From contig JAFUXG010000055.1 of the NCBI GenBank assembly GCA_017470935.1, positions 22,992 to 86,991 of the forward strand: a stretch of 64,000 bases of DNA, in the 5' to 3' direction. Under the pieces are notes generated by a model. That model saw nothing but the letters and a program-made list of their open reading frames with translations, did no database searches and was not told where the DNA came from. Below, piece by piece: positions 42,072-60,161 of this stretch (position 1 is the first letter of the stretch; each line of letters opens with the position of its first letter). A program made the position numbers and the translations under genes. Origin of the DNA: Lachnospiraceae bacterium (GTDB lineage: Bacteria; Bacillota; Clostridia; Lachnospirales; Lachnospiraceae).

Positions 42072-42448
42072 TAGTGATTTTACAAAAATCGTGAAAAAAT
42101 TGAAGAAGTCACTGCAATAGCCATAAGTGTGTACCCACATTGTTGTTATCATATCAACCAACAAATAATGAGGTACACAAGGACATTACGGGAAAATTGC
42201 TGAAGTCAGCCTGCCTGCAAGGGTATATAAGAAAATAGGCGGCACAATGCCCGAAGAACTTCCATCACCGGAGAAGAGTATTCAGCAAATTGAACAGGAA
42301 CAAATGGACAGACTTAAAGCAAAGGAAAAAAAGGAAGCATTATGCTGGATTAGTAATAGCACTATAATCTCGAAATATAATACATTAGTATAAAGACATT
42401 TTGAACGATAAGGGACACATTTTGTGTCCTTTTATCTTTTATAATAAA

Positions 42449-43236
42449 GTCTCTGTGATTGGCAAACAGATACTAATGATTCGGTTCTGGCAGATGCTTT
42501 TGCGTTCCTAGAACTTAAACCATCCGATACGGTAGGGTGTCATACAGCTAATATGATTGTTTCAATAATGAATGCCAAAGTTGGCAATTCAGGTGTTTCC
42601 CTCAGTTATCAATATCATTTTTTTGATTATAATCTTCTTCCTAGTGCAAAACCTTTGAATACAGCTGATAATGTGATTACTGATAGTAACTCATTCACTG
42701 TATCTGGAATTGGCGGAGATGGGTACAAAGTTTTACTCTATAAAGAAAAGTCTGACGATGAATGGAAATCCGAGGCAGTTGATGGAAGTCTTACAAAGAA
42801 AATAACTGGTTTGAGACCGGATACAGAGTATCAGGTGAAGATCCAGGCAACTTTGACGGTGAAGGATAGACTGAGAAACGAGATTAATCTTATATCTCCT
42901 GACAGCAATATAATAATATTTAAAACAGAGAATAGCACAAAGCCCGTTATAAAATCAGTAAAGATTACAAAGGTGAAATATAAAAAGAAAAAAACATCAT
43001 TTAAAATTGAAGCTGTACTGAAAAAAAACATTAAAGGAATAAAAGGCATTGTGATTAATGTTGCCGGAAAGAATTATGTATTAAAGGGTGATAAGAAAAA
43101 ATATTCTGTTAATGTATCAATGAATGGAAATAAAGTCGGAAAGAATATTAAGGTGAAGGTTCGTACCTATAATAATGCAGAGATGACCGGGTATGGACCA
43201 TATTCAAAGAATAAGACCGTAAAGATAAAAAAATGA
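42449..43236 (+). pseudogene. 5-prime-truncated gene for a fibronectin-type-III-like repeat surface protein
   Basis: The frame is open from 42449 with no signal peptide or SD. ITGLRPDTEYQVKIQA is an FN3 signature. K-rich tail. Other gene fragments lie just upstream (42170-42395). Confidence 0.5.
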
Positions 43237-44530: not shown

Positions 44531-45148
44531 ATGGACAAGAAAGCCGCAGATAAGTATATCAGGAAATACAGCCGTGTGTTTGAAAAGGTTCTTAAAAACA
44601 CTTCCACGGAAAATGTGGATGTCGGATTATCCGAATATACAAGCAGGCTGTCAAAGATGTATGCTTCTGATGAATTTAAGAAGCATAATGTATATCCTTC
44701 CATGAATACTGTACATATATATGCAGTTATAGCTATGTGTCTGGAGCTTAAAGAAACAGGAATGTCTGATAAGGATATTATTGATGCGATTAATAAGGGC
44801 TTTAGCCGTCGCAGGAATTTCTTCAAGAATATAATCGCTTTCATTAATATCCTTCCAAACAGTTATGAAATCGCAAAGAAGTGGAATATCTCTGATCATG
44901 AAAATAGGGTAAAGGACGGCAGTATCACATACGATTATTTTGATGTCGGCATGGATAAGATCGAGTACCGTATTTCCAAATGTATGTATGTAGAGATGTT
45001 TGAAAGCTATGGGATCAGAGGACTTTGCAAAATATTCTGTATGATCGATGAGTACTCATATGCCGGTCTTACAAGGCGTGTGAAATTCATAAGGCACTCG
45101 GATCTTTCGGATGGAGATAGCTGCTTTGACGAGATTATCAGGAAATAA
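44531..45148 (+). CDS. L-2-amino-thiazoline-4-carboxylic acid (ATC) hydrolase-family protein
   Basis: C-terminal ISKCMYVEMFESYGIRGLCKIFCMIDEYSY...DGDSCFDE pattern. Start at the ATG after SD GAAGGAGGGG. Confidence 0.55.
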   Translation: MDKKAADKYIRKYSRVFEKVLKNTSTENVDVGLSEYTSRLSKMYASDEFKKHNVYPSMNTVHIYAVIAMCLELKETGMSDKDIIDAINKGFSRRRNFFKNIIAFINILPNSYEIAKKWNISDHENRVKDGSITYDYFDVGMDKIEYRISKCMYVEMFESYGIRGLCKIFCMIDEYSYAGLTRRVKFIRHSDLSDGDSCFDEIIRK

Positions 45149-45176
45149 TAAGTAAATTAAGGAGGATATAGTTAAT

Positions 45177-45953
45177 ATGCACGTACATGAATTTGGAAAT
45201 AAGGATAACCCTGTTATACTGCTTCTACCCGGCACCATGTGTTATTGGAAGGGTAATTTCGGTAATGTCATAGATGAGCTTGCCAAGGATTTTCTGGTGG
45301 CAGCAGTTGCGTACACAGGATTTGATGAAGAAGATAAGGAAGACTATCGGAGCGTAACTGATGAAACCGGTCGTATAGAAGAGTATGTTGTGAAGAATTA
45401 TGGCGGGCATATTCGGGCGGCATACGGCTGCTCTCTTGGTGGAACCTTTGTGGCACATCTTGCAGCACGGAACAGGATAAAGATGGACTATGGAATTATC
45501 GGTAGTTCTGATTTGGATCAGGCAGGGAATATTAAAGCTTCGATTATGTCATCTCTGATGGTCAAGGTTACATGGAATTTCATACATACCGGGAGATATA
45601 ATTCCAAGCTGATGCAGAAAAGGTATGAAAGTCAGATGGCAGCTCCCGATCCGTATAACAAAGCATTTGTTGCAATCACGGGACGTGATAAATATGATAT
45701 GAGCTTTATATCAAAGGAAAGCCTGAAAGGTCAGTTCAAGTCAGATCTTACCACACCGCTCCCTAAGGGTATTGATAATAAGGAAACGGAGATACATGTC
45801 TTTTACGCAAAAAAGATGGGAGAGAAATATCTTGACCGGTACAATCTGTATTTCAAGAATCCGGTAATTCATGAACAGGATATGCGCCATGAGGAATTTC
45901 TGGGGGTTTATCCGCATGAATGGTGCGAACTTGTTAAAGAAATATGCCTGTGA
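45177..45953 (+). CDS. Alpha/beta-fold hydrolase
   Basis: Nucleophile elbow GCSLGG. N-terminal PVILLLPG oxyanion region. Confidence 0.75.
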   Translation: MHVHEFGNKDNPVILLLPGTMCYWKGNFGNVIDELAKDFLVAAVAYTGFDEEDKEDYRSVTDETGRIEEYVVKNYGGHIRAAYGCSLGGTFVAHLAARNRIKMDYGIIGSSDLDQAGNIKASIMSSLMVKVTWNFIHTGRYNSKLMQKRYESQMAAPDPYNKAFVAITGRDKYDMSFISKESLKGQFKSDLTTPLPKGIDNKETEIHVFYAKKMGEKYLDRYNLYFKNPVIHEQDMRHEEFLGVYPHEWCELVKEICL

Positions 45954-46003
45954 ATGGAAAAGCCGGGCATATATACTTACATACAGGATTGAGGTGCGGA
46001 TTA

Positions 46004-46609
46004 ATGAAATATGGTCTTATGGCTGTTATGATGCCGTTAATATTAGATAAAACATCTTATAAATATCTTGACAGTATCGGTGTCAGGACAGATTCCGAAA
46101 TGAAAAAGAAAATAAAAAAAGAATATAAGGAAATGGTAAAGAGGACTCCGGGACTGGCAAAGGGCAATGGTCTGGTGGTTAATCTGTACATAGGCTGTTA
46201 TCTGCTGGCGTTTTATAAGGCTGAACCTTCTGTTGTAACAGAACAGGTCTTTGAAGGAATGATCAAGGCTCTTTGTGATGAAATGATGCAACGGGAAAAG
46301 GAAAATGACAGCGCATTCAGTGAGAAGACAATAAGCATGAGAGAGAAAGCAGCAGTCAAATCTCAAAGCTCTGATTATGAGATGGATTGGAGGTCAACAT
46401 TTTCCCGCAAGGGTGATAACTGTTATGAATTTACATACACGAAGTGTGGATTGTGTGAGCTTGGAAGAAGAGAAGGATGTTTTCATCTCATTAAATATCT
46501 GTGCATGACGGATTATATAAGCTTTGACAAGGCGGGTGCAAAGCTCATACGGAATCATACGATAGCTAATGGGGATGATTTCTGTGATTTTCATGTTGAG
46601 AGAAAATGA
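46004..46609 (+). CDS. ATC hydrolase-family protein (second copy)
   Basis: YTKCGLCELGRREGCFHLIKYLCMTDYISFD...ANGDDFCDFHVE. Confidence 0.6.
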   Translation: MKYGLMAVMMPLILDKTSYKYLDSIGVRTDSEMKKKIKKEYKEMVKRTPGLAKGNGLVVNLYIGCYLLAFYKAEPSVVTEQVFEGMIKALCDEMMQREKENDSAFSEKTISMREKAAVKSQSSDYEMDWRSTFSRKGDNCYEFTYTKCGLCELGRREGCFHLIKYLCMTDYISFDKAGAKLIRNHTIANGDDFCDFHVERK

Positions 46610-46625
46610 ATAAGAGGTGACAGAA

Positions 46626-47138
46626 ATGATAATGACAGCACTAATAGAAGGAATGATATGGTCTGTTCTATGGATCATATATGTATATGTTATTGTAAAG
46701 TGTTTTCCATGGCAGATGCTTCATGATTATCCTGAGGATATTCAAAAAGCTGCAACGATTGGTGAGCCTACGGATAAGCAGAACAGGAATAGTAAGATTT
46801 TCGGTGTTATAGGATCACTGATCATTTTTGCGGCACTTATAATATTTGGGCTTATGAAGTTTGGTGGAGAGCCGTCTTCATTTTTATCAGTGTTTGCTTT
46901 TATATTCATTATTGCTATGACTTGGAATGTGGTGGATCTGATCATTATGGACTGGCTCATTATCTGCACTATAACGCCTAAATGGGTAGTTATCGAAGGT
47001 ACGGATGGATGCAGGGGCTATAAGGATTATATGTATCATTTCAAAGGTTTTCTTATAGGATGCATATACACAACGATCATGTCATTGATCTTTGCTGGGA
47101 TAGACTATCTTATACTAAAATTATTGGTATGGAGATAA
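46626..47138 (+). CDS. Hypothetical integral membrane protein
   Basis: Four hydrophobic helices. SD AAGAGGTGA. Confidence 0.6.
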   Translation: MIMTALIEGMIWSVLWIIYVYVIVKCFPWQMLHDYPEDIQKAATIGEPTDKQNRNSKIFGVIGSLIIFAALIIFGLMKFGGEPSSFLSVFAFIFIIAMTWNVVDLIIMDWLIICTITPKWVVIEGTDGCRGYKDYMYHFKGFLIGCIYTTIMSLIFAGIDYLILKLLVWR

Positions 47139-47307
47139 AGATTTGACTCTGAAGGAAAAAGAGCAGTAAAGATGATCTTAACGATTCGTCAGTGTCAGGG
47201 CTTTTCCGGCTGATGGCAAAGCTTGGCGACGATGCTATGAAAATGAAGATTGTAAAGATCGAGTTTTAACGGGATACAAAGATACAGAAATATAACAGGA
47301 GGCTAAG

Positions 47308-48135
47308 ATGGAAAAGTTTAAGGTGGAAAACGGAACGGTACAGGAGACTTTGATGATGCCGCTTTATGGAAGAGTATATTGTGAGGAGCATTTTTCTGAA
47401 ACATTTCCGAACAAAGCAGCAAAGGAAACAGCAGCAAGAGTTGACTATGATTTTGATAAGGTAAAGAGTAGTGAACTTAATATGATCACATGGGGACTTC
47501 GTGCAAGAATGCTGCAGGATGGAGCCAGGAATTATTTGAAAGCCCATCCACAGGCAACGATTATTAATCTTGGCTGCGGTCTTGATCAGTCATTTGCAGA
47601 GATTGATAACGGTACCTGTAAATTCATTAATATGGATCTGCCGAATGTGATTGAAGCGAGAGAAAAGATTGTTACATGTGCCGAAAGAGAGTTTAATTAT
47701 GCCGGCAGTCTTATGGATTTTGAATGGATGCAGGAGATAACAAAGCCTCCGTATAATGTAAATGTCTCAGACGGAGTTTATATCATTTGCGGCGGAGTGC
47801 TGATGTATTTTCACACAGCGGATATGAAACGCTTCTTCCTGGCATTGCTTAATGCATTTCCGGGTGGTGGAATATGCTTTGACGGCGAGAATCAAAAGGG
47901 ACTTGAAAAATCCAATAAGATTGTCCAAAAGACCGGCAATGGGACGAAAATATATTTTCCCATTGAGAATGCAAGGGAACTTTTTGCATCATGGAGTGCC
48001 GATTTCAAGAATGTATCTGAGATGGCTTTTCCTGAGTATGTTAAGGAGAGCAGGGAAATTCCTTGGAAATGGAAATTAGTGTTATCTCTTGGAATGAAGC
48101 TTGGAATGGTCAAGCTCATAGAGGTCGGATTCTGA
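47308..48135 (+). CDS. Class I SAM-dependent methyltransferase (LCM/TcmP-like), paralogue of 30705-31559
   Basis: IINLGCGLDQSF and NMDLPNVIEAREK. SD CAGGAGG. Confidence 0.7.
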   Translation: MEKFKVENGTVQETLMMPLYGRVYCEEHFSETFPNKAAKETAARVDYDFDKVKSSELNMITWGLRARMLQDGARNYLKAHPQATIINLGCGLDQSFAEIDNGTCKFINMDLPNVIEAREKIVTCAEREFNYAGSLMDFEWMQEITKPPYNVNVSDGVYIICGGVLMYFHTADMKRFFLALLNAFPGGGICFDGENQKGLEKSNKIVQKTGNGTKIYFPIENARELFASWSADFKNVSEMAFPEYVKESREIPWKWKLVLSLGMKLGMVKLIEVGF

Positions 48136-48316
48136 AGAAGATATTCTTAATATTATTGCATTAGTTCAGGCTTGTACCATCTGACATCGTTTTCAGATTT
48201 CTTTGTTGAATTTATGGCAAAATTAGAATATCATATTGATGCTTTTAATTCATATGTCGGATGTCAATGGACATTATGGGTATTAGACAAGGATAATTAA
48301 GGGGAGAGGTAACAGG

Positions 48317-49513
48317 ATGGCAAAGAAAGAAAACAAATATAAAGATTACGATATCACAACACAGGCGATCCATACGGGGACTGACTATGATGAGGGAACA
48401 GGCGCTGTAAGACGTCCTCTTCATATGGCAAACAGCTACAAGCTGCCTGATGATCTGTCTCAGGTGAATTATTCATCTACGGATCTGTTAATGTATTCAA
48501 GAAATGGTAATCCCAATCAGCATTGGCTTGAAGAGAAAATAGCGGCACTTCATGATGCTGATGATGCTATTGTGCTGGCAAGCGGTGTGGCAGCGCTCCA
48601 TGCCCTGTTCTGGACACTGTTAAAAACGGGGGATAAGGTTATCTATCCCAATGTCAGCTATATGGCTGTGTACAGGATGTTCCATGAACTGTTCAATCAG
48701 AAATTCGGGGTGGAAACAGTTATGGTGGACATGACAGATTTGGAGGCTGTAAAGAAAGCAATTACTCCGGGAACACGTCTGGTTCATATTGAGACTCCTG
48801 ATAATCCTACCAATGGAGTGACGGATATTGAAGCTATCGCAAAAATTGCACATGAGAATGGTGCAGTTTTGTCGGTTGATAATACATTTGCTTCACCCTA
48901 TAATCAGAAACCGCTCTCTCTTGGCGCTGATTTTGTGGTGGAGGCACTTACGAAATTTATTAATGGACATGGTGATGCACAGGGTGGAGCAATCATCTCA
49001 AATGATCTTGCAACGATGGACAGGATTCGTTATGAGGCACAGGTAAATGTGGGTTCAGTAATCAGTCCTTTCAATGCATGGCAGATATTCAGAGGTTCTG
49101 TTACATTTCCGCTCCGCATGCAGCGGATTAATGAGTCTTCGCTGAAGATTGCCGAGTGGCTGGAGCAGCGGGAAAATGTAACATTTGTATCATATCCCGG
49201 ACTCCCGAGTAATCCCGGACATAGGCTGGCAAAGAAACAGATGAAAAACGGATATGGTGGAGTGATTTCTTTTGGTGTGGATACAGATGATAAAACAGTT
49301 GAGAAGTTCTGTGCAGCACTTAAGGTCGTGACCTTTGCAGTATCCCTGGGACATGATGAAAGCCTGATTTTTCCACAGCCAAGCTATGATGAACGCATCA
49401 ATCTCTATCCGGAAAAATTCAGAAAAGGATTTATCCGTTTTTCGGTTGGACTGGAAGAGCCGGATGACATTATAGCTGATCTGGATCAGGCACTTAGAAG
49501 TATTGGTTTATGA
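48317..49513 (+). CDS. PLP-dependent Cys/Met-metabolism enzyme (methionine gamma-lyase / cystathionine gamma-synthase family)
   Basis: The TKFINGHGD region carries the PLP lysine. SVDNTFASPYNQKP. About 400 aa. Confidence 0.85.
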   Translation: MAKKENKYKDYDITTQAIHTGTDYDEGTGAVRRPLHMANSYKLPDDLSQVNYSSTDLLMYSRNGNPNQHWLEEKIAALHDADDAIVLASGVAALHALFWTLLKTGDKVIYPNVSYMAVYRMFHELFNQKFGVETVMVDMTDLEAVKKAITPGTRLVHIETPDNPTNGVTDIEAIAKIAHENGAVLSVDNTFASPYNQKPLSLGADFVVEALTKFINGHGDAQGGAIISNDLATMDRIRYEAQVNVGSVISPFNAWQIFRGSVTFPLRMQRINESSLKIAEWLEQRENVTFVSYPGLPSNPGHRLAKKQMKNGYGGVISFGVDTDDKTVEKFCAALKVVTFAVSLGHDESLIFPQPSYDERINLYPEKFRKGFIRFSVGLEEPDDIIADLDQALRSIGL

Positions 49514-49534
49514 AGACATTTTTTGCTATCAAAG

Positions 49535-49632
49535 AAGAACTTAATTGAATTCAGAACAAATTTTAAGATAACTGCAACGGGTGAATATTATTATAGAAAA
49601 TGCAGGTTATAAGTAATGCTTATCAATTTATT
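49535..49632 (+). pseudogene. Deletion remnant of a LysR-family gene paralogous to 53826-54722
   Basis: TTTAAGATAACTGCAACGGGTGAATATTATTATAGAAAATGCAGG matches 53989-54033. ATAAGTAATGCTTATCAAT matches the 3-prime end at 54719-54737. Confidence 0.5.
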
Positions 49633-49719
49633 TCATGCGGGCACTGTGACAAACGCTGTCCGTTTGGAGTAAAGCAAAGCACAAGAATGAAGATAATATC
49701 ACAATTTTTTGGAGAATGA
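49632..49719 (+). pseudogene. C-terminal remnant of an Fe-S-containing aldo/keto-reductase-like gene
   Basis: Reads ISCGHCDKRCPFGVKQSTRMKIISQFFGE-stop, a ferredoxin-type CxxCxxxCP tail with no upstream body. Confidence 0.4.
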
Positions 49720-49958
49720 ACATGAATGGGAAAAAGTTTCTGATGCAATCGGATGGTGCGATGTATGTAAAGGATGGGAGGATGAAGATTATCTAAAAAA
49801 GGAACTTGAGAATGCATTTTCAAGAGTGTGCTGCCTCGAATTAATTCCTGAGCATATAACGGGAAAATTGGTTAACGAATCATAAAAACCTCTGTTATTA
49901 CAGACCCTAATGATTTTGTTCTTATAGATAATTTATAATATGAAAATAGTGATGAATG

Positions 49959-50927
49959 TTAGCTTACATTCACCACTATTTTTCCGTTTATTTTTCCTTC
50001 ATCTAATGATATACATGCTTCTTTAATGTTTTTGAAATCATAAATCTCACCGATCAAAGGCTTTAAGGCTTTTTCATCCATAAAAGTGAAAATGTCCTGT
50101 ATCATTTCCCGATAGGGATAATTGCTATAAAATCCGGTAAGATATACCCCGTTCGGGATATCCTTGATGGGATCAAAATGGTTCCATTCATATACTTTAC
50201 CAAGTACTCCTGTATTACATACTATCACGCCTTCGTTAACAGATTGCATTGTATCCTTAAGGGTCTTAATTCCAATAAGCTCTAATACCTTTGTGACAGT
50301 ATCGGTTTTACCTTTAAGGCTTCCGTCATCTAATATACATTCATCCGCTCCGGCAGATTTAATGAGATCAAGTTTGGATTCTTTATGTGTTGTTGCTATT
50401 ACTGTACATCCCAAAGCTTTTGCAAGCTGAATTGCCGCATAACCAAGGGCGCATGTGGCTCCACGAATCAGGAGAGTGTCATCAGGTATAAGTTTAAGAC
50501 ACTGGAATAGCGATCCCCATGCAGTAAAATAGGTTTCCGGAACAGCCGCCATTTCATGCCATGGAAGACTGCTTTTTACAGCAAAAACATGATGTGTGGG
50601 GAGAAGCGCATATTCTGCATAACTTCCGTTAAAGCTTCTTCCCATGCCGCCCATTAAAGCGACAATTTTATCTCCGGTTAAAAAGCTGCTGTCAGATGGA
50701 TCTGCAATTTCTCCAACACATTCAATTCCCGGAATAATAGGCTTGCTGATATAATCACTTGCTATCTCGAATTCCCGAAGAAGCTGTTCAGAGTGGTTCA
50801 TTCCAAATGCTTTTACTTTAACAAGCACCCATCCGGGTTTGACTTGCGGGATAGGTACATCGGATAGAACTACATCACTTCCTTTTGTAGGTTTATCAAT
50901 AATAACTGCTTTCATTGTATTATTCAT
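49959..50927 (-). CDS. Medium-chain (zinc-type/quinone oxidoreductase-like) dehydrogenase
   Basis: Start at the ATG (MNNTMKAVII) after SD AGAAAGGAA. GWVLVKVKAFGMNHSE and IRGATCALGYAAIQLAKALG Rossmann region. Confidence 0.8.
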   Translation of the reverse strand: MNNTMKAVIIDKPTKGSDVVLSDVPIPQVKPGWVLVKVKAFGMNHSEQLLREFEIASDYISKPIIPGIECVGEIADPSDSSFLTGDKIVALMGGMGRSFNGSYAEYALLPTHHVFAVKSSLPWHEMAAVPETYFTAWGSLFQCLKLIPDDTLLIRGATCALGYAAIQLAKALGCTVIATTHKESKLDLIKSAGADECILDDGSLKGKTDTVTKVLELIGIKTLKDTMQSVNEGVIVCNTGVLGKVYEWNHFDPIKDIPNGVYLTGFYSNYPYREMIQDIFTFMDEKALKPLIGEIYDFKNIKEACISLDEGKINGKIVVNVS

Positions 50928-51007
50928 AAAAGTTGATTCCTTTCTGCTACACATATAATCGAAAGTACTTAGTAACACTATTCGAACAGGTGTCTGCCTT
51001 TTGAGTT

Positions 51008-52096
51008 TCATAGTGAAATCAGTTCATCATGGCATGGACTCGTGTCGATCCAGCACTGTGGGTCTTCAGCGTAGAAATCCCCATTTGTTCCCTTGGCAAC
51101 TGCCGGACAACCTCTGCACCAGGGGAGGAGACGACATTTGGAACATTTACTGAATTTATCAAACTCACGGTAAGTCTCCATACTTCCTACCCAGATATCA
51201 GCCAGTTTATCTTCATACACATTACCTACTCTGCTGTCAGATACCCGTCTGCAGGCATAGACATCGCCGGAAGGCAGAATTGTGAGATGACTGTTTCCGC
51301 AATGGCAGCCGTCATAGATCATTCCTTCCTCGGCAGCTTCAGGTATATGAAATTTACCGGTTTCATAGTCATGCAAAGTCCATAAATGATCCTTCTTGTT
51401 AAAATAGGTATCGCATCCTTGTTTTTCATATTCTGCGAACTTCTTATCACACTTATCTAACAGTGCACGATACTCTTCAGCGGTCATACTTGTATCAAGT
51501 TCTCCGCCGCTTGGAACATATCTTGAAAAAGCAAAGACGTTAGCACCTGCGGCAACTGCTTCGTCGATGATTCCCGGTATCTCATTCATGTTGGTTTTTG
51601 ACACGGTTGTCATTATGGCTGTTCTTATTCCGGCATTTCTCAAGCAGGCAAGTTTTTTCAATGTGCAGTCAAATGATCCCGGTTTTCTGAACCAGTCATG
51701 AGTTTCCCTCAGACCATCTATGGACATCTGATATCTTTCACATCCGTATGATTTAAGTCGTTTGCATACTTCTTCATTCAGATGAAATGGATTCCCCAAT
51801 ATCGTAAATAATATGCCATGCTCGTGAATCAATTTCAAAAGCCTCCAGAAATCAGGATGAAGAATGGGATCGCCGCCTGTAAGATAGAAGTAGGGTCTGC
51901 AGTTATATGTATCACAAAAGTCAAGACAGTTGTAAAATGTCTTTTTCATCTCTTCCCAGTTCATGGTCTCTAACGGCTTACAGTTATCAGCGGAAAAAAT
52001 GTAGCAGTGTTTACAGCGCTGGTCGCAGTCATCGGTTATGTGCCATTGAAATGAAAATGTAAATTTTTTATTTGGTTTTTGAGTATTTGTATTCAT
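51008..52096 (-). CDS. Radical SAM/SPASM-domain peptide maturase (ranthipeptide/thioether-type)
   Basis: CDQRCKHCY (CxxxCxxC) about 25 residues from the start. TGGDP. C-terminal SPASM cysteines CHCGNS...YACRR...CSKCRLLPWCRGCP. Start at the ATG after SD AAAGGAAG. Confidence 0.85.
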   Translation of the reverse strand: MNTNTQKPNKKFTFSFQWHITDDCDQRCKHCYIFSADNCKPLETMNWEEMKKTFYNCLDFCDTYNCRPYFYLTGGDPILHPDFWRLLKLIHEHGILFTILGNPFHLNEEVCKRLKSYGCERYQMSIDGLRETHDWFRKPGSFDCTLKKLACLRNAGIRTAIMTTVSKTNMNEIPGIIDEAVAAGANVFAFSRYVPSGGELDTSMTAEEYRALLDKCDKKFAEYEKQGCDTYFNKKDHLWTLHDYETGKFHIPEAAEEGMIYDGCHCGNSHLTILPSGDVYACRRVSDSRVGNVYEDKLADIWVGSMETYREFDKFSKCSKCRLLPWCRGCPAVAKGTNGDFYAEDPQCWIDTSPCHDELISL

Positions 52097-52112
52097 ATAT
52101 ATACTTCCTTTT

Positions 52113-52344
52113 GGAGCAGTTCTTGTCGAGCAAGGCGAGACATTAGAACTGCCCATATGCAGGCACCAGATGGTTCAAGTTCGAAGAACGCAGAAGCATC
52201 TGGTAGTGCCGAGCCATTAGGAGCAGTTCTTGTCGAGCAAAGCGAGATATTAGAACTGCCCATATGCAGGCACCAGATGGTTCAAGTTCGAAGAACGCAG
52301 AAGCATCTGGTAGTGCCGAGCCATTAGGAGCAGTTCTTGTCGAG
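52113..52344. repeat. 107-bp tandem repeat, 2.2 copies, between the RiPP precursor and the maturase
   Basis: Copies start at 52113, 52220 and 52327 (partial). I saw 2 mismatches between the full copies. Each unit contains two hairpins. Confidence 0.9.
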
Positions 52345-52386
52345 GTAAAAACTTGGACTGACCAATGTTTAGTTCGGTCAGTCCAA
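52344..52386 (-). terminator. Intrinsic terminator/attenuator 28 nt downstream of the precursor stop
   Basis: On the minus strand: TTGGACTGACC, 12-nt loop, GGTCAGTCCAA, then GTTTTTA. Confidence 0.7.
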
Positions 52387-52414
52387 AGTACGATCAGATT
52401 CTGTCTTTTAGGAA

Positions 52415-52603
52415 CTACTTGTCTGAAGCTCCGCAAGCGCTGTAATTGTCAGCAGAGCCACAAGCACTGTAGCTGTCGGCAGAACCGCATGCACTGTGAT
52501 TGTCAGCAGAGCCGCAAGCACTGTGATTATCGGAAGAACCGCAGGCAGAGCCTGATGTCACTGCAGTACCCTTTGACCATGAAGCAAAATTCTTTAATGC
52601 CAT
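52415..52603 (-). CDS. RiPP precursor peptide with five Cys-X3-Asp repeats (ranthipeptide-like)
   Basis: MALKNFASWSKGTAVTSGS leader, then 9-aa repeats SACGS(S/A)D(N/S)(H/Y). Strong SD GGAAAGGAG 5 nt before the ATG at 52603. Confidence 0.8.
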   Translation of the reverse strand: MALKNFASWSKGTAVTSGSACGSSDNHSACGSADNHSACGSADSYSACGSADNYSACGASDK

Positions 52604-52811
52604 AATATACTCCTTTCCGCAGATTAACTGCATTTAATTTATGCTTGAATATTACTGTTCAAAAATATCAGGAAAACCATGATTATTCTTTGAACTGTAA
52701 CATCTTATGATCAGTTTATCAGATGGAATGTTGAATGTGAAATAAATATATGCTATAGTTTATAACTGATTGGAATAAATAATGCATAGATAATAAAACG
52801 GAGGGATATTG

Positions 52812-53717
52812 ATGAACACTACTCAACTGGAATGTTTTGTCAGTCTTGCAAATACATTGAATTATGTTAAAACAGCAGATCAGCTTGGTTTGAGTCAGCC
52901 TGCGGTATCGAAGCAGATTAAATCTCTGGAAAATGAACTTGGCACCCGGCTTTTTGACCGGACTACAAGATTTGTTTCCCTTACTCAAGTGGGACAGCAG
53001 TTTCTTCCGGAAGCGTCAAATATACTGAATACCTACTATCATTCAAAAGAATGGATTTCTAATTTTAATGTAAGCTCAAAGCATTCCTTACGAATCGGCT
53101 ACAGTGATCCTCACAGCATGAATATGTTGAGCAAAATACTTAAAAACCTGCTGCCCGACTTCCCCAATCTGATCATTGAAATGACAAGTGATCAGACAGA
53201 TGCGAATCTGCGGAGGTTGATAAATGGACAGGTGGATCTTGTAATGGGAATGAGGGATGCAAGGTTTACTGATGACAATGTAATCTTTAAAAAGCTTCAT
53301 GAAGATTATTTCGTCTGCATAGTGTCAAAGGAACATCCACTTATTAAAGAATTAAATGATGTAGAAATAATTAGTACAGAGCAGCTTTGGAATTACAGGC
53401 AGGTTATCTCGATTCCTCCCTATCTTATGAAAAATTACTTTTCAAGAGCTCATAGGATATTGCCGGTAAATGATGACCTTGATAACAGCATCTGTACAAA
53501 TATCAATGAGGCTTATGCTTTGGTATTATCGGGCTTTGGTTATTCATTTGTACCGGAGCATCTGGTGATGGAACATCCTGAGCTTGTTTTTCTGAAATGG
53601 AAGGAATCACCACATTCAGCATTTGGACTGTATTACAGAAAGGATGCAGCAGGTGAAAAGACATCGGCACTTAGAAAATTTATTAATATTTCACAGTCCT
53701 TGCTAAATAAATCCTGA
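52812..53717 (+). CDS. LysR-family transcriptional regulator (divergent from the RiPP operon)
   Basis: N-terminal HTH: LECFVSLANTLNYVKTADQLGLSQPAVSKQIKSLE. Confidence 0.85.
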   Translation: MNTTQLECFVSLANTLNYVKTADQLGLSQPAVSKQIKSLENELGTRLFDRTTRFVSLTQVGQQFLPEASNILNTYYHSKEWISNFNVSSKHSLRIGYSDPHSMNMLSKILKNLLPDFPNLIIEMTSDQTDANLRRLINGQVDLVMGMRDARFTDDNVIFKKLHEDYFVCIVSKEHPLIKELNDVEIISTEQLWNYRQVISIPPYLMKNYFSRAHRILPVNDDLDNSICTNINEAYALVLSGFGYSFVPEHLVMEHPELVFLKWKESPHSAFGLYYRKDAAGEKTSALRKFINISQSLLNKS

Positions 53718-53825
53718 ACCCCCTGCACCCCGCAAACAGACTTCAACTACCGTGCTGGATTGACAAAAAATTATGCACATTATAAAATATTGAATTATAA
53801 AAAGATAAGAGAGGTAACCATACCT

Positions 53826-54722
53826 ATGCTTCTTAGACAAATGCAGTTTTTTGTTTCAATCATAGATGAGAACAGCTTTACAGAAGCAGCTGAGAAAAAT
53901 TATGTGTCTCAGTCTGCTGTATCGCAGGCAATCAGTGCATTAGAGGCTGATCTTGGCGTTAAGCTTATTGAGCGTAAGAACAGAAGCTTTAAGATAACCG
54001 CAGCGGGTGAATATTTTTATAGAAAATGTAAGTCATTGCTATCGGATATTGACCACATTAGAAATGAGACAATACGACTGGGAAGTGATGAAGATAATTC
54101 ACTTAATATCGGATATATCAACCTATATTCGGGACCTGAACTATCGGAGGCAATTGCAGAATTTTCAGGTGTTTATCCTGATGTGGATATTTCTGTTAAA
54201 AGCGGAACTCATGAAGAATTGTATCACGGACTTGTGTCGGGAAACATTGACCTTGCACTTAATGATCAACGCAGAGCATTTTCGGATGATTATGTGAATC
54301 TGGAATTAAAGAATGCAGAATGCATAATTGAAATGTCGGAACGTTCGGAATTGTCTTCATGTAAAAGACTGGAGATTAGTGATCTTTCCAAAATGTCATG
54401 TATCATTGTATCATCAAAGGATCAGAGAAAAACCGAAGCGGAGTATTATAGAAATATCTTAGGTTTTACTAGTGATTTTCTCTATGCAGAATCGCAGGAA
54501 GAAGCAAGGCTTATGGTTACAGGCAATAGAGGATTCCTGCCCATTGAAGCTGTGGGCAGACTGCCGGAACTATCCGGATCAATAAAAAGAATACCGCTCT
54601 ATCGTAAAAAACGCAGAGTTACCAGAAAGTACTGTCTGTTTTGGCAGAAAGAAAAGACGGGATACTATATCGAGGAGTTTGCGCGCATATTGAAAAGCAG
54701 ACTTGAACAAGTGGATGCATAA
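53826..54722 (+). CDS. LysR-family transcriptional regulator
   Basis: HTH: MQFFVSIIDENSFTEAAEKNYVSQSAVSQAISALE. Start at the ATG at 53826. Confidence 0.85.
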   Translation: MLLRQMQFFVSIIDENSFTEAAEKNYVSQSAVSQAISALEADLGVKLIERKNRSFKITAAGEYFYRKCKSLLSDIDHIRNETIRLGSDEDNSLNIGYINLYSGPELSEAIAEFSGVYPDVDISVKSGTHEELYHGLVSGNIDLALNDQRRAFSDDYVNLELKNAECIIEMSERSELSSCKRLEISDLSKMSCIIVSSKDQRKTEAEYYRNILGFTSDFLYAESQEEARLMVTGNRGFLPIEAVGRLPELSGSIKRIPLYRKKRRVTRKYCLFWQKEKTGYYIEEFARILKSRLEQVDA

Positions 54723-54737
54723 GTAATACTTATCAAT

Positions 54738-54784
54738 AAGTGAAGAAAATCGAATTGAAGATTTTCTTCACTTATTTTATTTTA
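54738..54784 (+). terminator. Rho-independent terminator
   Basis: AAGTGAAGAAAATC / GATTTTCTTCACTT perfect 14-bp stem followed by ATTTTATTTTAT. Confidence 0.8.
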
Positions 54785-54789
54785 TATTT

Positions 54790-55158
54790 ATGAGGTTTTA
54801 TTCATAGAGAAAAGTAATAACCGGAATAATGATGGTAAGCCTTATGATGCTTGCGGGATGCGGTCAGTCAGGTAATGCTGATGTTATTAATGATACAGCC
54901 GGTACAGAGGCGGAAATAACCGTTGGTACAATAGGATTAGATGATAATGAGCAAATTGTTGATTCTGCAGAAAAGACATTGATTCCTTTTTCCACCCATG
55001 CTGGAAGCGGACTCTCGGGTTTTGATAGTAAGCTTTCGGCTGCCTGCACTGAGGCTTCCATAGGGACAGGGCTTGCAATAGCTGGAACAGATGCACAGAA
55101 TGATAAGGACAGTGTAAAGCAGAGTGTAGATGAGTGGCTGAATGGTCTGGGATATTAA
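54790..55158 (+). pseudogene. Degraded flavodoxin-like lipoprotein gene (in-frame stop in the signal peptide, central deletion)
   Basis: The ATG at 54790 is in frame with 54829 but interrupted by TAG at 54805-54807. Lipobox LAGCG. Only the C-terminal flavodoxin_4-like part (KTLIPFSTHAGSG...WLNGLGY) remains. Confidence 0.5.
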
Positions 55159-55178
55159 ATGTAAAACTTGGAGGTTAG

Positions 55179-56171
<993 letters not shown>

Positions 56172-56300
56172 TTTCGCATAAGTTACGCTTATCAAAAAGA
56201 CGAATAATTCGAATTGATGTTATCCTTGCAAATATATATAATTAGCTTAAAAGTAAGGATTGGTTATTAAATAATATAGGTAAAACAGGAGGCGCGGATA

Positions 56301-56726
56301 ATGAACAAAGAACAGTTTGACAAAGAAAACATTTTCGGTATTGGACAGCCCAATGATGCATTTGCGCAGTATTTTGTTGGTAATTCCTATCTGAATCCGT
56401 TGGTTGACCCGAAGACGACACCGATGTTTCTGGCAAATGTAACATTTGAGCCGGGATGCCGTAATAACTGGCATATCCATCGTGCCAAATCAGCAGGCGG
56501 CCAGATATTGATATGCATTGCAGGAAGCGGATGGTATCAGGAGGAAGGCAAAGAAGCGGTAGACCTTAAGCCGGGGACAGTTATTGTTATACCCGCAAAT
56601 GTGAAGCACTGGCATGGGGCTAAGAAGGACGAGTGGTTCTCACATATCGCATTGGAGGTGCCGGGAGAGGAATGTTCTACTGAGTGGTGTGAACCGGTAA
56701 GTGATGAAGATTACAATAAGCTGTAA
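56301..56726 (+). CDS. Cupin-domain protein
   Basis: NWHIH ... GWYQEEG ... PANVKHWHGA cupin metal motifs. Confidence 0.8.
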   Translation: MNKEQFDKENIFGIGQPNDAFAQYFVGNSYLNPLVDPKTTPMFLANVTFEPGCRNNWHIHRAKSAGGQILICIAGSGWYQEEGKEAVDLKPGTVIVIPANVKHWHGAKKDEWFSHIALEVPGEECSTEWCEPVSDEDYNKL

Positions 56727-56863
56727 CAGATAAACCACTTGGTATTTATGCAAAAAATTGATTTAAATAGAAAGATAAAGTCTGAGGATATTTCGGATAT
56801 CCTCGAAAACAGCGGAGAAAAAATAGGTATAGAGGTCAGATAACAGAAAGGAAGGTAATAAAA

Positions 56864-57691
56864 ATGGCGAGAACATGGTTGATTACAGGTGTATCAAGCG
56901 GCTTTGGCAATGAGATGACAAAGCAGCTTTTAGAGAAGGGTGACACGGTCATTGGAACCGTGAGAAATACAAATAAGGTAGAGGAACTGATTGAAAGGTA
57001 TCCTGATACTTTCGACTGCCAGATCCTTGATGTGACGGATCTGGAGCGTATTCATAGTTTTATTCCGGAGATGTTCAATAAACACGGAAAGATTGATGTT
57101 GTGGTAAATAATGCAGGCTATGGCCTGTTCGGTGCCGCTGAGGAATTAGATTATGATAACATCCAGAAGATACTTGACACTAACCTGACAGGACCAATCA
57201 TGATCATTCACGACAGTCTCCCGTTCCTTAGAAAGCAGGGCGGATGGCGTATCATTCAGCTCTCAAGCTATGGCGGACAGGTGGCTTTCCCGGCAAATTC
57301 CATGTATCATGCAACAAAGTTCGGAATTGAAGGGTTCTGTGAGTCTGTAGCACAGGAAGTTGCAAAGTATAACATCGGTATCACTATTGTTGAACCGGGC
57401 GGGGCAAGAACAGAGTTCAGATATGGCAGTGCACATGTAGCCAATCTGATGCCGGAGTATGATCATGTGCATGCCTTCTTAAATATGCTTGATCCTAAAA
57501 AAGGTTTGGCACCCGGAGATCCGGCAAAGATGGCAGCAAGGATGATAGAGAGTGTTGATAAGGAACCGGCACCTCTTCGTATGGTACTTGGTTCTCAGGC
57601 ACTTTCCGCAACTATCGAGAGACTGGAAGAGCGTGTTGCTGACTATAAGACACAGACGGAACTGGCAGCTTCAACAGATGTAGTAGAGTAA
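56864..57691 (+). CDS. SDR-family oxidoreductase
   Basis: TGVSSGFG cofactor motif, NNAG, catalytic YHATK. Confidence 0.9.
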   Translation: MARTWLITGVSSGFGNEMTKQLLEKGDTVIGTVRNTNKVEELIERYPDTFDCQILDVTDLERIHSFIPEMFNKHGKIDVVVNNAGYGLFGAAEELDYDNIQKILDTNLTGPIMIIHDSLPFLRKQGGWRIIQLSSYGGQVAFPANSMYHATKFGIEGFCESVAQEVAKYNIGITIVEPGGARTEFRYGSAHVANLMPEYDHVHAFLNMLDPKKGLAPGDPAKMAARMIESVDKEPAPLRMVLGSQALSATIERLEERVADYKTQTELAASTDVVE

Positions 57692-59933: not shown

Positions 59934-59960
59934 ACAAACCTCTGCACTTGACAAACAGAC

Positions 59961-60119
59961 CATAACGGTTCGCTGCAAGTCGAAGCTTCTACGTCCTGCG
60001 AACTTGAACCTTCGAGCAGCAGCTATGCATAAGTTCGATTACGAAAATCATAGATTTTCTATCTCACTTATATCGTATGGGCAGTTCTAATGTATCGCAA
60101 GCTCGACAAGAACTGCTCC
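59961..60119. repeat. Inverted, diverged copy of the 107-bp repeat unit (with about a 50-nt insertion)
   Basis: TATGGGCAGTTCTAATGTATCGCAAGCTCGACAAGAACTGCTCC is the reverse complement of 52113-52157 with a few changes. CTTCTACGTCCTGCGAACTTGAACC matches the second hairpin loop. Confidence 0.75.
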
Positions 60120-60161
60120 AAATGGTTCAATGAATACACAGACCCTATATTTTTAAATATA

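Follow-up and report, generated by a model that had tools for sequence, protein, structure and literature searches.

What does a five-repeat cysteine peptide encoded beside a compact radical SAM/SPASM enzyme become, and is the gene pair a new one? The question is raised by a 64,000-nucleotide stretch of Lachnospiraceae DNA (the window, meaning the whole stretch analysed), in which the initial annotation had read the pair as a ranthipeptide-type operon whose product and mode of leader recognition would be new members of their class. Taking all of the evidence together, we put at roughly 0.6 the probability that the locus is best explained as a two-gene module of the ACGX system, in which cysteines of the peptide are modified and the product serves inside the cell in a stress-linked role. 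The two genes and their main parts are the following.

52415-52603, minus strand: precursor gene, a 62-aa ACGX-repeat peptide (sequence, TIGR04341 match and 27-bp period)
52610-52618, minus strand: Shine-Dalgarno-like GGAAAGGAG, 6 nt 5' of the precursor ATG, read from the sequence
51008-52096, minus strand: ACGX-system radical SAM/SPASM enzyme gene, 362 aa (TIGR04340, Pfam Radical_SAM and SPASM)
52004-52027, minus strand: radical SAM cluster codons C24-x3-C28-x2-C31 (CDQRCKHC, residues 24-31), invariant in a 12-sequence alignment
51053-51307, minus strand: SPASM region, residues 264-348 (Pfam SPASM and invariant columns)

The precursor reads MALKNFASWSKGTAVTSGS, then SACGSSDNH, SACGSADNH, SACGSADSY, SACGSADNY and SACGASDK, that is, a leader opening with MALKNFASW followed by five A-C-G-S-x-D units, with Asp four residues after the Cys (CX3D) in all five. 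This translation is identical to the one first proposed, and the 27-bp periodicity noted with it was recovered by Tandem Repeats Finder (52431-52547, period 27, 4.3 copies, score 136). The peptide matches TIGR04341 over its full length at 39.3 bits, above the curated cutoff of 28, and is therefore not a chance reading frame. It is well positioned for translation through its own strong ribosome-binding site, and its gene holds no in-frame TGA (selenocysteine) codon.

The enzyme most likely starts at MNTNTQ (52096), with AAGGAAG just 5' of it; a 382-aa reading frame was rejected as an over-extension, since homologues start at the shorter position and the added codons fall within the 107-bp repeat element described below. 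The enzyme scores 577 bits against TIGR04340 (curated cutoff 400), residues 13-350 aligning with profile positions 2-339 of 341, and Pfam places Radical_SAM at residues 20-179 (75.3 bits) and SPASM at residues 264-330 (43.4 bits). In the 12-sequence alignment C264, C266, C282, C318, C321, C327, C330 and C348 are invariant, a set that could supply two auxiliary clusters. With only about 19 residues ahead of the radical SAM domain, and no RRE domain found in the enzyme, the compact, RRE-less maturase described at the outset stands. The suggestion that its mode of leader recognition is new does not, as the short N-terminus is a trait of the TIGR04340 family, whose profile has 341 positions, and RRE-independent maturases such as DarE are known (PMC10705402).

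Because both curated models are passed, and GenBank and Pfam give the same label, the locus is almost certainly an ordinary two-gene member of the ACGX system. The enzyme is identical in sequence to the Lachnospiraceae protein MBR1599521.1, labelled "ACGX system" in GenBank, and close relatives of the window precursor carry PF27855 (Target_ACGX), the Pfam counterpart of the peptide family. The leader M-A-L-x-N-[LIF]-x-x-W and A-C-G-x repeats of the family appear in the window as MALKNFASW and five ACG units. Both genes lie on one strand, the precursor gene immediately 5' of the enzyme gene, and this arrangement recurs in 71 of 80 genome loci (L006-L085), drawn from six or more phyla, where an open reading frame of the form MALSNLxGW...ACG-repeat sits just 5' of the enzyme gene. 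The family was matched in no fewer than 588 species genomes, and its enzymes are about 70% identical across phyla, from Lachnospiraceae to Synergistota, Spirochaetota and Desulfovibrionaceae. As a class, then, the locus is already known, the ACGX system catalogued from anaerobes of the gut and rumen, and the claim of new class members has to be given up: both genes pass their TIGR models, the Pfam family exists and the exact enzyme bears the label. Literature searches on the system's name, its TIGR accessions, the motifs of the peptide, and HxlR together with SPASM found no paper on it.

The family precursors yielded 478 cysteines in 287 units for motif counting. Ala stands at -1 of 96% of these cysteines and Gly at +1 of 99%. 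At the last Cys of each unit, Asp or Glu occupies +4 in 268 of 287 cases (93%; 247 Asp, 21 Glu), and Asn does so once. A different arrangement is found at 191 of the 478 cysteines (40%), each the first Cys of an A-C-G-S/T-A-C-G doublet, with Cys rather than an acid at +4. The window precursor is an atypical variant: its +2 residue is Ser instead of the family's Ala, and its Asp is followed by Asn/Ser-His/Tyr instead of Lys-Pro-Glu-Glu-Lys-Pro. Few variants like it were found (P0121, P0122).

We consider it highly probable that the window enzyme modifies the window peptide at Cys, with the Ala(-1) and Gly(+1) that nearly always frame the family's cysteines marking that residue as the target. 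The enzyme would directly recognise the family-conserved leader M-A-L-S/K-N-L/F-x-x-W and act on the Cys of each A-C-G-x-x-D unit. A Cys-Asp thioether, which would mean five small rings at -2 Da each, is a possible but tentative choice for the specific modification. PapB makes Cys-Asp and Cys-Glu thioethers in CX3D/E motifs (PMC9413430), and the near-fixed acid at +4, Asp in every window unit, speaks for such a product. Against it, the near-invariant Ala(-1) and Gly(+1) are not a PapB requirement, and the enzyme fails the PapB model NF047865 (71.2 bits, cutoff 340) and scores higher on models of other characterised families, namely SbtM (183.5 bits, cutoff 350), AhbD (139) and NirJ (120). No other thioether-forming radical SAM model was present among its 25 best matches (the 25th at 51.8 bits), and a sequence search against solved structures gave distant matches only (SkfB, 2e-10; CteB, 5e-9). 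Moreover, a scheme of one Cys to one acid leaves 40% of the family's cysteines unexplained, because Cys, not an acid, is at their +4. Of the ranthipeptide-type reading in the initial annotation, the CX3D motif holds in all five units; that motif is its one footing, the enzyme is not PapB-like, and we keep the reading as a hypothesis only.

An alternative built on SbtM treats every Cys alike. By removing four hydrogens, SbtM turns Cys or Sec into a thio(seleno)oxazole (PMC11002830). By analogy, each A-C-G Cys would form a 5-thiooxazole or related heterocycle with the preceding Ala carbonyl, at -4 Da per Cys, giving a multi-site soft-metal or redox-active peptide without O2. To our knowledge, the oxygen-dependent MNIO route to thiooxazoles is closed to strict anaerobes. 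Uniform treatment of Cys would account for the retention of Ala(-1) and Gly(+1) around all 478 cysteines, the 40% without a +4 acid among them, and, ACGX itself apart, no characterised family scores better than SbtM, whose match covers the whole radical SAM/SPASM region. Its score is nevertheless far under the SbtM cutoff, the first 197 model positions have no counterpart in the enzyme, and the heme-modifying AhbD and NirJ score nearly as high, so that a common compact architecture may be all that the similarity reflects. The fixed +4 acid would also go unexplained, and we regard this chemistry as doubtful. Oxidation of each Cys to the formylglycine aldehyde is far less probable. Like anSME, the enzyme is a compact SPASM protein without an RRE, and anSME is among its structural matches, but Foldseek with the AlphaFold2 model (shallow 12-sequence alignment, mean pLDDT 62, SPASM part below 50) matched BlsE, SuiB, SkfB, PqqE and anSME equally well and does not discriminate between chemistries. 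Nor does the enzyme group with anaerobic sulfatase maturases, a grouping that, together with an untranslated small reading frame, the initial annotation had named as refuting its reading: it fails TIGR03942 (62.6 bits, cutoff 349), the peptide lacks the substrate motif C-x-P/A-x-R, also in its wider form C/S-x-P/A-x-R, and no sulfatase gene was found among the called neighbouring genes. Slightest of all is the chance that the enzyme has another substrate and the peptide, left without modification, serves as a thiol or metal buffer. The composition of the peptide resembles that of metal-binding Cys-repeat peptides and stress genes are abundant nearby, yet adjacency and order of the two genes are strictly kept in those 71 of 80 genome loci, and the peptide has a conserved leader-type N-terminal motif. 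In every tested case that we know of, SPASM enzymes beside small Cys-rich reading frames are peptide maturases.

Three non-coding elements flank or separate the two genes.

52347-52387, minus strand: intrinsic-terminator-like hairpin, 14 pairs with a TTTTT tail, 27 nt past the precursor stop codon
52107-52344, minus strand: 107-bp structured repeat element, two full copies and a 23-nt partial one, between the hairpin and the enzyme ribosome-binding site
52645-52703, no strand assigned: inverted repeats in the LysR/precursor divergent region, TTGAA-N8-TTCAA at 52645-52662 nested in longer arms

A perfect hairpin of at least 7 bp occupies the precursor-enzyme spacer in 66 of 71 related loci; partial read-through of it may keep the enzyme transcript below the peptide transcript. 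The 107-bp element (Tandem Repeats Finder: 2.2 copies, 98%; fold z = -6.6) is polymorphic, with no copies in the closest relative (L086), one in L001 and two in the window, and diverged copies occur elsewhere in the window. It is lineage-restricted, since a metagenome scan gave one further copy (L087). Rfam gave no relevant match for 49000-54000 (E up to 1) or for six related loci; the element and the conserved hairpin therefore fall outside the described RNA families. In the divergent region, the TTGAA-N8-TTCAA repeat highlighted at the outset is present, as part of an imperfect, longer inverted repeat whose 15-nt arms (52649-52663 with 52689-52703) are 87% complementary, but it is weak evidence: 18 of 100 shuffles of the window hold at least one such site, which makes its occurrence not significant. 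A promoter scan gave sites no more numerous than in shuffles.

The genes on either side bear on what the product does.

49959-50927, minus strand: MDR-type zinc-dehydrogenase/quinone-reductase-like gene, 322 aa, about 80 nt 3' of the enzyme gene
52809-53717, plus strand: LysR-family regulator gene, divergent from the precursor
about 53826-54722: second LysR gene, after the first

This arrangement, with an MDR dehydrogenase following on the same strand and a divergent LysR gene, is as first described. A 350-aa dehydrogenase reading frame was rejected as an over-extension, homologues starting at a shorter position. Of 72 related loci, 22-25 have an MDR dehydrogenase homologue 3' of the enzyme gene, and 61 carry at least one of nitroreductase, PNPOx-ferredoxin and MDR reductase 3' on the same strand. 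A divergent HxlR-type regulator is present in 50 of the 72; the closest relative carries the same LysR as the window. About one third of loci have a sirtuin and macrodomain pair alongside the peptide and enzyme genes. The absence of a nearby RRE, protease or exporter gene was also borne out: in the called genes of the flanking 6 kb or so on each side, no PqqD/RRE, peptidase or transporter family was found; likewise, no conserved peptidase or transporter was found near the pair across the 72 related loci.

Because no protease or exporter is linked to the pair anywhere in the family, the product would stay inside the cell. The HxlR, reductase and sirtuin/macrodomain context suggests a role in redox or electrophile stress rather than antibiosis, in which the product might cooperate with the neighbouring reductases, under LysR control here and HxlR control in most relatives. 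On this gene neighbourhood we give an intracellular, stress-linked role even odds; that radical SAM enzymes are oxygen-labile counts against it. The competing view, a conventional secreted antimicrobial or signalling RiPP whose leader protease and exporter are encoded elsewhere in the genome, could appeal to the export common among radical SAM-modified peptides and to systems with unlinked processing genes. We think it improbable, given the lack of a conserved peptidase or transporter near the pair, the constant HxlR and reductase linkage, and a cross-phylum enzyme identity of about 70% with a near-fixed core motif, unlike fast-evolving bacteriocins.

Returning to the stress-linked ACGX module, a bolder and rather unlikely proposal can be framed: ACGX peptides would be stress-induced, intracellular, radical-SAM-modified Cys-repeat peptides, a ribosomally made counterpart of thiol or metal buffers in gut anaerobes and not antibiotics, with HxlR-type co-regulation alongside quinone and nitro reductases. 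Their chemistry would be one undescribed for this enzyme branch, for example an O2-free thiooxazole route, and the His/Tyr variant of the window would form a sub-type whose ligand properties differ. The neighbourhood pattern of HxlR, reductases and sirtuin/macrodomain offers a concrete lead, and the chemistry, if solved, would hold for a large part of the anaerobes of rumen and gut.

How does the locus compare with characterised systems? Freyrasin biosynthesis (PapA/PapB) is alike in its tandem Cys-X3-Asp motifs of small residues and adjacent radical SAM/SPASM maturase gene (PMC9413430). It differs in that the window enzyme lacks an RRE and fails the PapB model, the window locus has no protease or exporter, and most ACGX family members have extra cysteines without an acid partner. 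SbtM (TIGR04082) also acts on Cys in a peptide, and its match to the window enzyme spans the catalytic and SPASM regions. However, the match is confined to positions 198-515 of the 516 in the profile, leaving the first 197 without an equivalent in the window enzyme, the score is below cutoff, and the window peptide has Cys with no selenocysteine codon. DarE and DynA, the maturases of darobactin and dynobactin, are radical SAM/SPASM peptide maturases without an RRE (PMC10705402), and the DynA model aligns end to end with the window enzyme at 66 bits. DarE, by contrast, relies on an N-terminal extension of about 60 residues where the window enzyme has about 19 before the radical SAM domain, it makes ether and C-C links on Trp with no Cys chemistry, and its products are exported antibiotics. 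Compared with its own system, the window locus departs in its LysR rather than HxlR regulator, in the repeat element inserted between the precursor and enzyme genes, and in its core: every unit has one Cys and carries Ser at +2, Asn/Ser-His/Tyr-Ser spacers stand in place of Lys-Pro-Glu-Glu-Lys-Pro-Ala, and both His and Tyr occur, whereas the cores of 71 other precursors lack His and seldom contain Tyr. It shares with the ACGX system the gene order, leader motif, A-C-G-x repeats, C-terminal ACGxSDK ending and compact enzyme.

The precursor and enzyme genes lie between an MDR dehydrogenase gene and a divergent LysR gene:

52415-52603, minus strand: precursor ORF, 62 aa, with five A-C-G-S-x-D units
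6 nt 5' of the precursor ATG, minus strand: ribosome-binding site GGAAAGGAG, from sequence reading
51008-52096, minus strand: radical SAM/SPASM enzyme gene, 362 aa, from Pfam domains
49959-50927: MDR zinc-dehydrogenase gene, downstream of the enzyme gene
52809-53717: LysR gene, divergent

ORF translation, Pfam domains (Radical_SAM at residues 20-179, SPASM at 264-330; CxxxCxxC at 24-31), a 27-bp period in the precursor gene (4.3 copies, score 136, Tandem Repeats Finder) and the LysR and MDR flanks were all found, and thus bear out the peptide and radical SAM/SPASM pair described in the initial annotation. The enzyme most likely starts at 52096 (MNTNTQ...), preceded by AAGGAAG. Six Cys that belong to neither the radical SAM nor the SPASM motif (residues 57, 61, 111, 119, 151 and 216) are invariant in a 12-sequence alignment, where, at only ~70% identity, invariance is weak evidence. 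For the dehydrogenase, a 350-aa reading has an ATG that overlaps the TGA stop of the enzyme gene (ATGA, 51008-51011); this start is probably unused, because homologues start at MKAV..., ~28 codons further in.

Both genes match models of the ACGX system. The peptide scores 39.3 bits against NCBIfam TIGR04341 ('ACGX-repeat peptide'; cutoff 28) and the enzyme 577 bits against TIGR04340 ('radical SAM/SPASM domain protein, ACGX system'; cutoff 400). Pfam PF27855 (Target_ACGX) is found on relatives of the window peptide, and the exact enzyme sequence, from a Lachnospiraceae metagenome-assembled genome, is already ACGX-named in GenBank (MBR1599521.1). Judged by these matches, the locus is an already annotated member of a catalogued family, and represents neither a new class nor a new leader-recognition mode. 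Enzyme relatives number at least 3000 proteins at E <= 1e-30, encoded in at least 588 species-representative genomes. The best 80 of these at least 588 loci (67-77% identity to the window enzyme) belong to Lachnospiraceae, Oscillospiraceae, Erysipelotrichales (Solobacterium), Negativicutes (Schwartzia), Succinivibrio, Sphaerochaetaceae, Flexilinea, Fretibacterium and Mailhella; any sample source named is gut or rumen.

The initial annotation was right that the compact enzyme leaves no room for an N-terminal RRE, a PqqD-like leader-binding domain, as Radical_SAM begins at residue 20 (Pfam). RRE absence is a trait of the whole family, whose TIGR04340 profile has 341 positions. DarE, the darobactin maturase, is a documented RRE-independent radical SAM peptide maturase (PMC10705402). 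We infer that the ACGX enzyme may recognise the strongly conserved nine-residue peptide N-terminus, the obvious element.

In 71 of the 80 loci, a small ORF lies directly 5' of the enzyme gene, starting M-A-L-S-N-L-x-G-W and encoding 3 to 15 Cys. These peptides hold 478 Cys, of which 96% follow an Ala (-1) and 99% precede a Gly (+1). Of the 287 units that the Cys form, 100 have a single Cys, 183 a pair at a distance of four residues (A-C-G-S/T-A-C-G) and 4 three Cys. Counting from the last Cys of each unit, position +4 is acidic in 268 (247 Asp, 21 Glu) and +5 is Lys in 251; the common spacer is Pro-Glu-Glu-Lys-Pro-Ala.

PapB, the freyrasin maturase, forms Cys-Asp and Cys-Glu links within CX3D/E motifs (PMC9413430). 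At the level of the motif the analogy holds, in that a fixed +4 acid with Asp/Glu interchange is what Cys-acid linking would select, and we put the probability of a Cys-Asp thioether at roughly one in three. Such a scheme would account for the +4 acid, but not for the extra Cys. The enzyme is no close relative of PapB (71 bits; cutoff 340). Thus, of the claim that the operon is ranthipeptide-type, the likeness to PapB substrates stands, whereas enzyme homology does not favour what is a hypothetical assignment.

After ACGX, the top-scoring families are SbtM (183.5 bits), the heme b synthase AhbD (138.7) and NirJ (119.9), all far under their cutoffs. SbtM turns Cys or Sec into a thio(seleno)oxazole, removing four hydrogens (PMC11002830). 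Similar Cys oxidation here is a more doubtful option than the thioether: a Cys-centred reaction would account for Ala and Gly being conserved around all Cys, the 40% without a +4 acid among them, but would leave that acid unexplained. Formylglycine formation, at 62.6 bits against the sulfatase-maturase model (cutoff 349), is very improbable; grouping with sulfatase maturases, which the initial annotation had named as counting against its reading, is thus not seen. The remaining probability goes to some other chemistry.

To describe the gene neighbourhood, ORFs were called in 72 loci and clustered by BLASTP, and cluster representatives were named by Pfam and NCBIfam.

Downstream genes on the same strand in 72 loci
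Nitroreductase: 35-43
PNPOx-like protein fused to 2x[4Fe-4S] ferredoxin: 37-39
MDR dehydrogenase of the window type: 22-25
SIR2-like protein: 31
Macrodomain protein-ADP-ribose hydrolase (NF003163, 369 bits vs 272): 23-25

At least one of the nitroreductase, PNPOx-ferredoxin and MDR reductase genes occurs in 61 of the 72 loci; the SIR2-like and macrodomain genes occur together in 20, and one or both in 34. Only three loci, all contigs of 1.7-3 kb, have none of the tabulated genes. An HxlR-family regulator is upstream and divergent in 50/72, on the opposite strand every time; in NCBIfam it scores best, though under both cutoffs, against the redox regulators RrpB and RrpA. In the window and in L086, its closest relative, LysR takes this place. 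No conserved peptidase or transporter was found near the pair in the 72 loci. This neighbourhood is conserved across phyla. HxlR-type regulators, nitroreductases and quinone reductases form thiol-reactive electrophile/oxidant regulons in Firmicutes. From this context, we therefore infer co-induction of peptide and enzyme with the neighbouring genes and an intracellular site of action for the product. In the wider window neighbourhood, at 53760-57691 and ~45000-49600, most genes encode small redox/detoxification enzymes, namely an aldo-keto reductase, a cupin protein, a short-chain dehydrogenase and a carboxymuconolactone-decarboxylase (CMD)-family protein; a PLP enzyme gene of Cys/Met metabolism and another LysR gene also lie there.

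The noncoding regions hold the following features:

52649-52663 with 52689-52703: 15-nt imperfect inverted repeat, 87% complementary, 25 nt apart
52347-52387: hairpin of 14 pairs with a TTTTT tail, 27 nt 3' of the precursor stop codon
52107-52344, minus strand: 107-bp element, 2.2 copies, between precursor and enzyme genes
~42440-42550 and ~59950-60130, plus strand: diverged 107-bp copies, intergenic
L087 (one other metagenome contig), 1530-1634: diverged 107-bp copy

The reported TTGAA-N8-TTCAA does occur at 52645-52662; of 100 shuffles, however, 18 also produce a site of this kind. It sits in the longer imperfect repeat of the LysR/precursor divergent region, which may serve as a regulator site or form a hairpin in the 5' UTR; a promoter scan gave nothing above chance. 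In 66 of 71 loci, the precursor stop is followed by a GC-rich hairpin with 7-18 perfect pairs (threshold 7 bp), with a T-rich tail directly behind in only 12. Many spacers share the stem GTTCCCGGCGGG...CCGCCGGGAAC, then a small TCGG-N-CCGA hairpin with a T-run. The hairpin has no match in Rfam. It may be a conserved RNA element instead of a simple terminator. Its position would fit a common arrangement, where a stem-loop behind the precursor gene keeps the enzyme transcript under the peptide transcript or stabilises the peptide message.

With 318 nt, the window spacer exceeds the family median of 104, and the excess is the 107-bp unit (2.2 tandem copies, 98% identity). This unit, which has no Rfam match, is a small dispersed repeat element; each copy folds as a long hairpin (whole spacer z = -6.6). 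Near-identical strains carry 0 (L086, L088), 1 (L001) or 2 copies (window), and several assemblies end inside the repeat. Recombination between the 18-nt direct repeats at the ends of the unit probably changes the copy number.

What interest is left lies in a very widespread system whose conserved neighbouring genes suggest a role in redox stress and for which our literature search, with most subscription journals outside its coverage, found no published chemistry; earlier characterisation is possible.

Only a few precursors resembling the window variant were found. One has three repeats and its enzyme shares a 90% cluster with the window enzyme, whose precursor has five; repeat number therefore changes quickly. 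In the relatives L088-L090, whose three-repeat precursor is 44 aa long, the enzyme gene is intact, but LysR is broken into two pieces of 85 aa and 88 aa and only 213 aa of the dehydrogenase remain. Compared with the ACGX family, the window peptide has the same kind of leader (MALKNFASW), A-C-G core, Asp at +4 and C-terminal ACGASDK, but differs in its single-Cys units only, Ser at +2 and Asn/Ser-His/Tyr-Ser spacers; the 71 other precursor cores have no His, and Tyr is rare.
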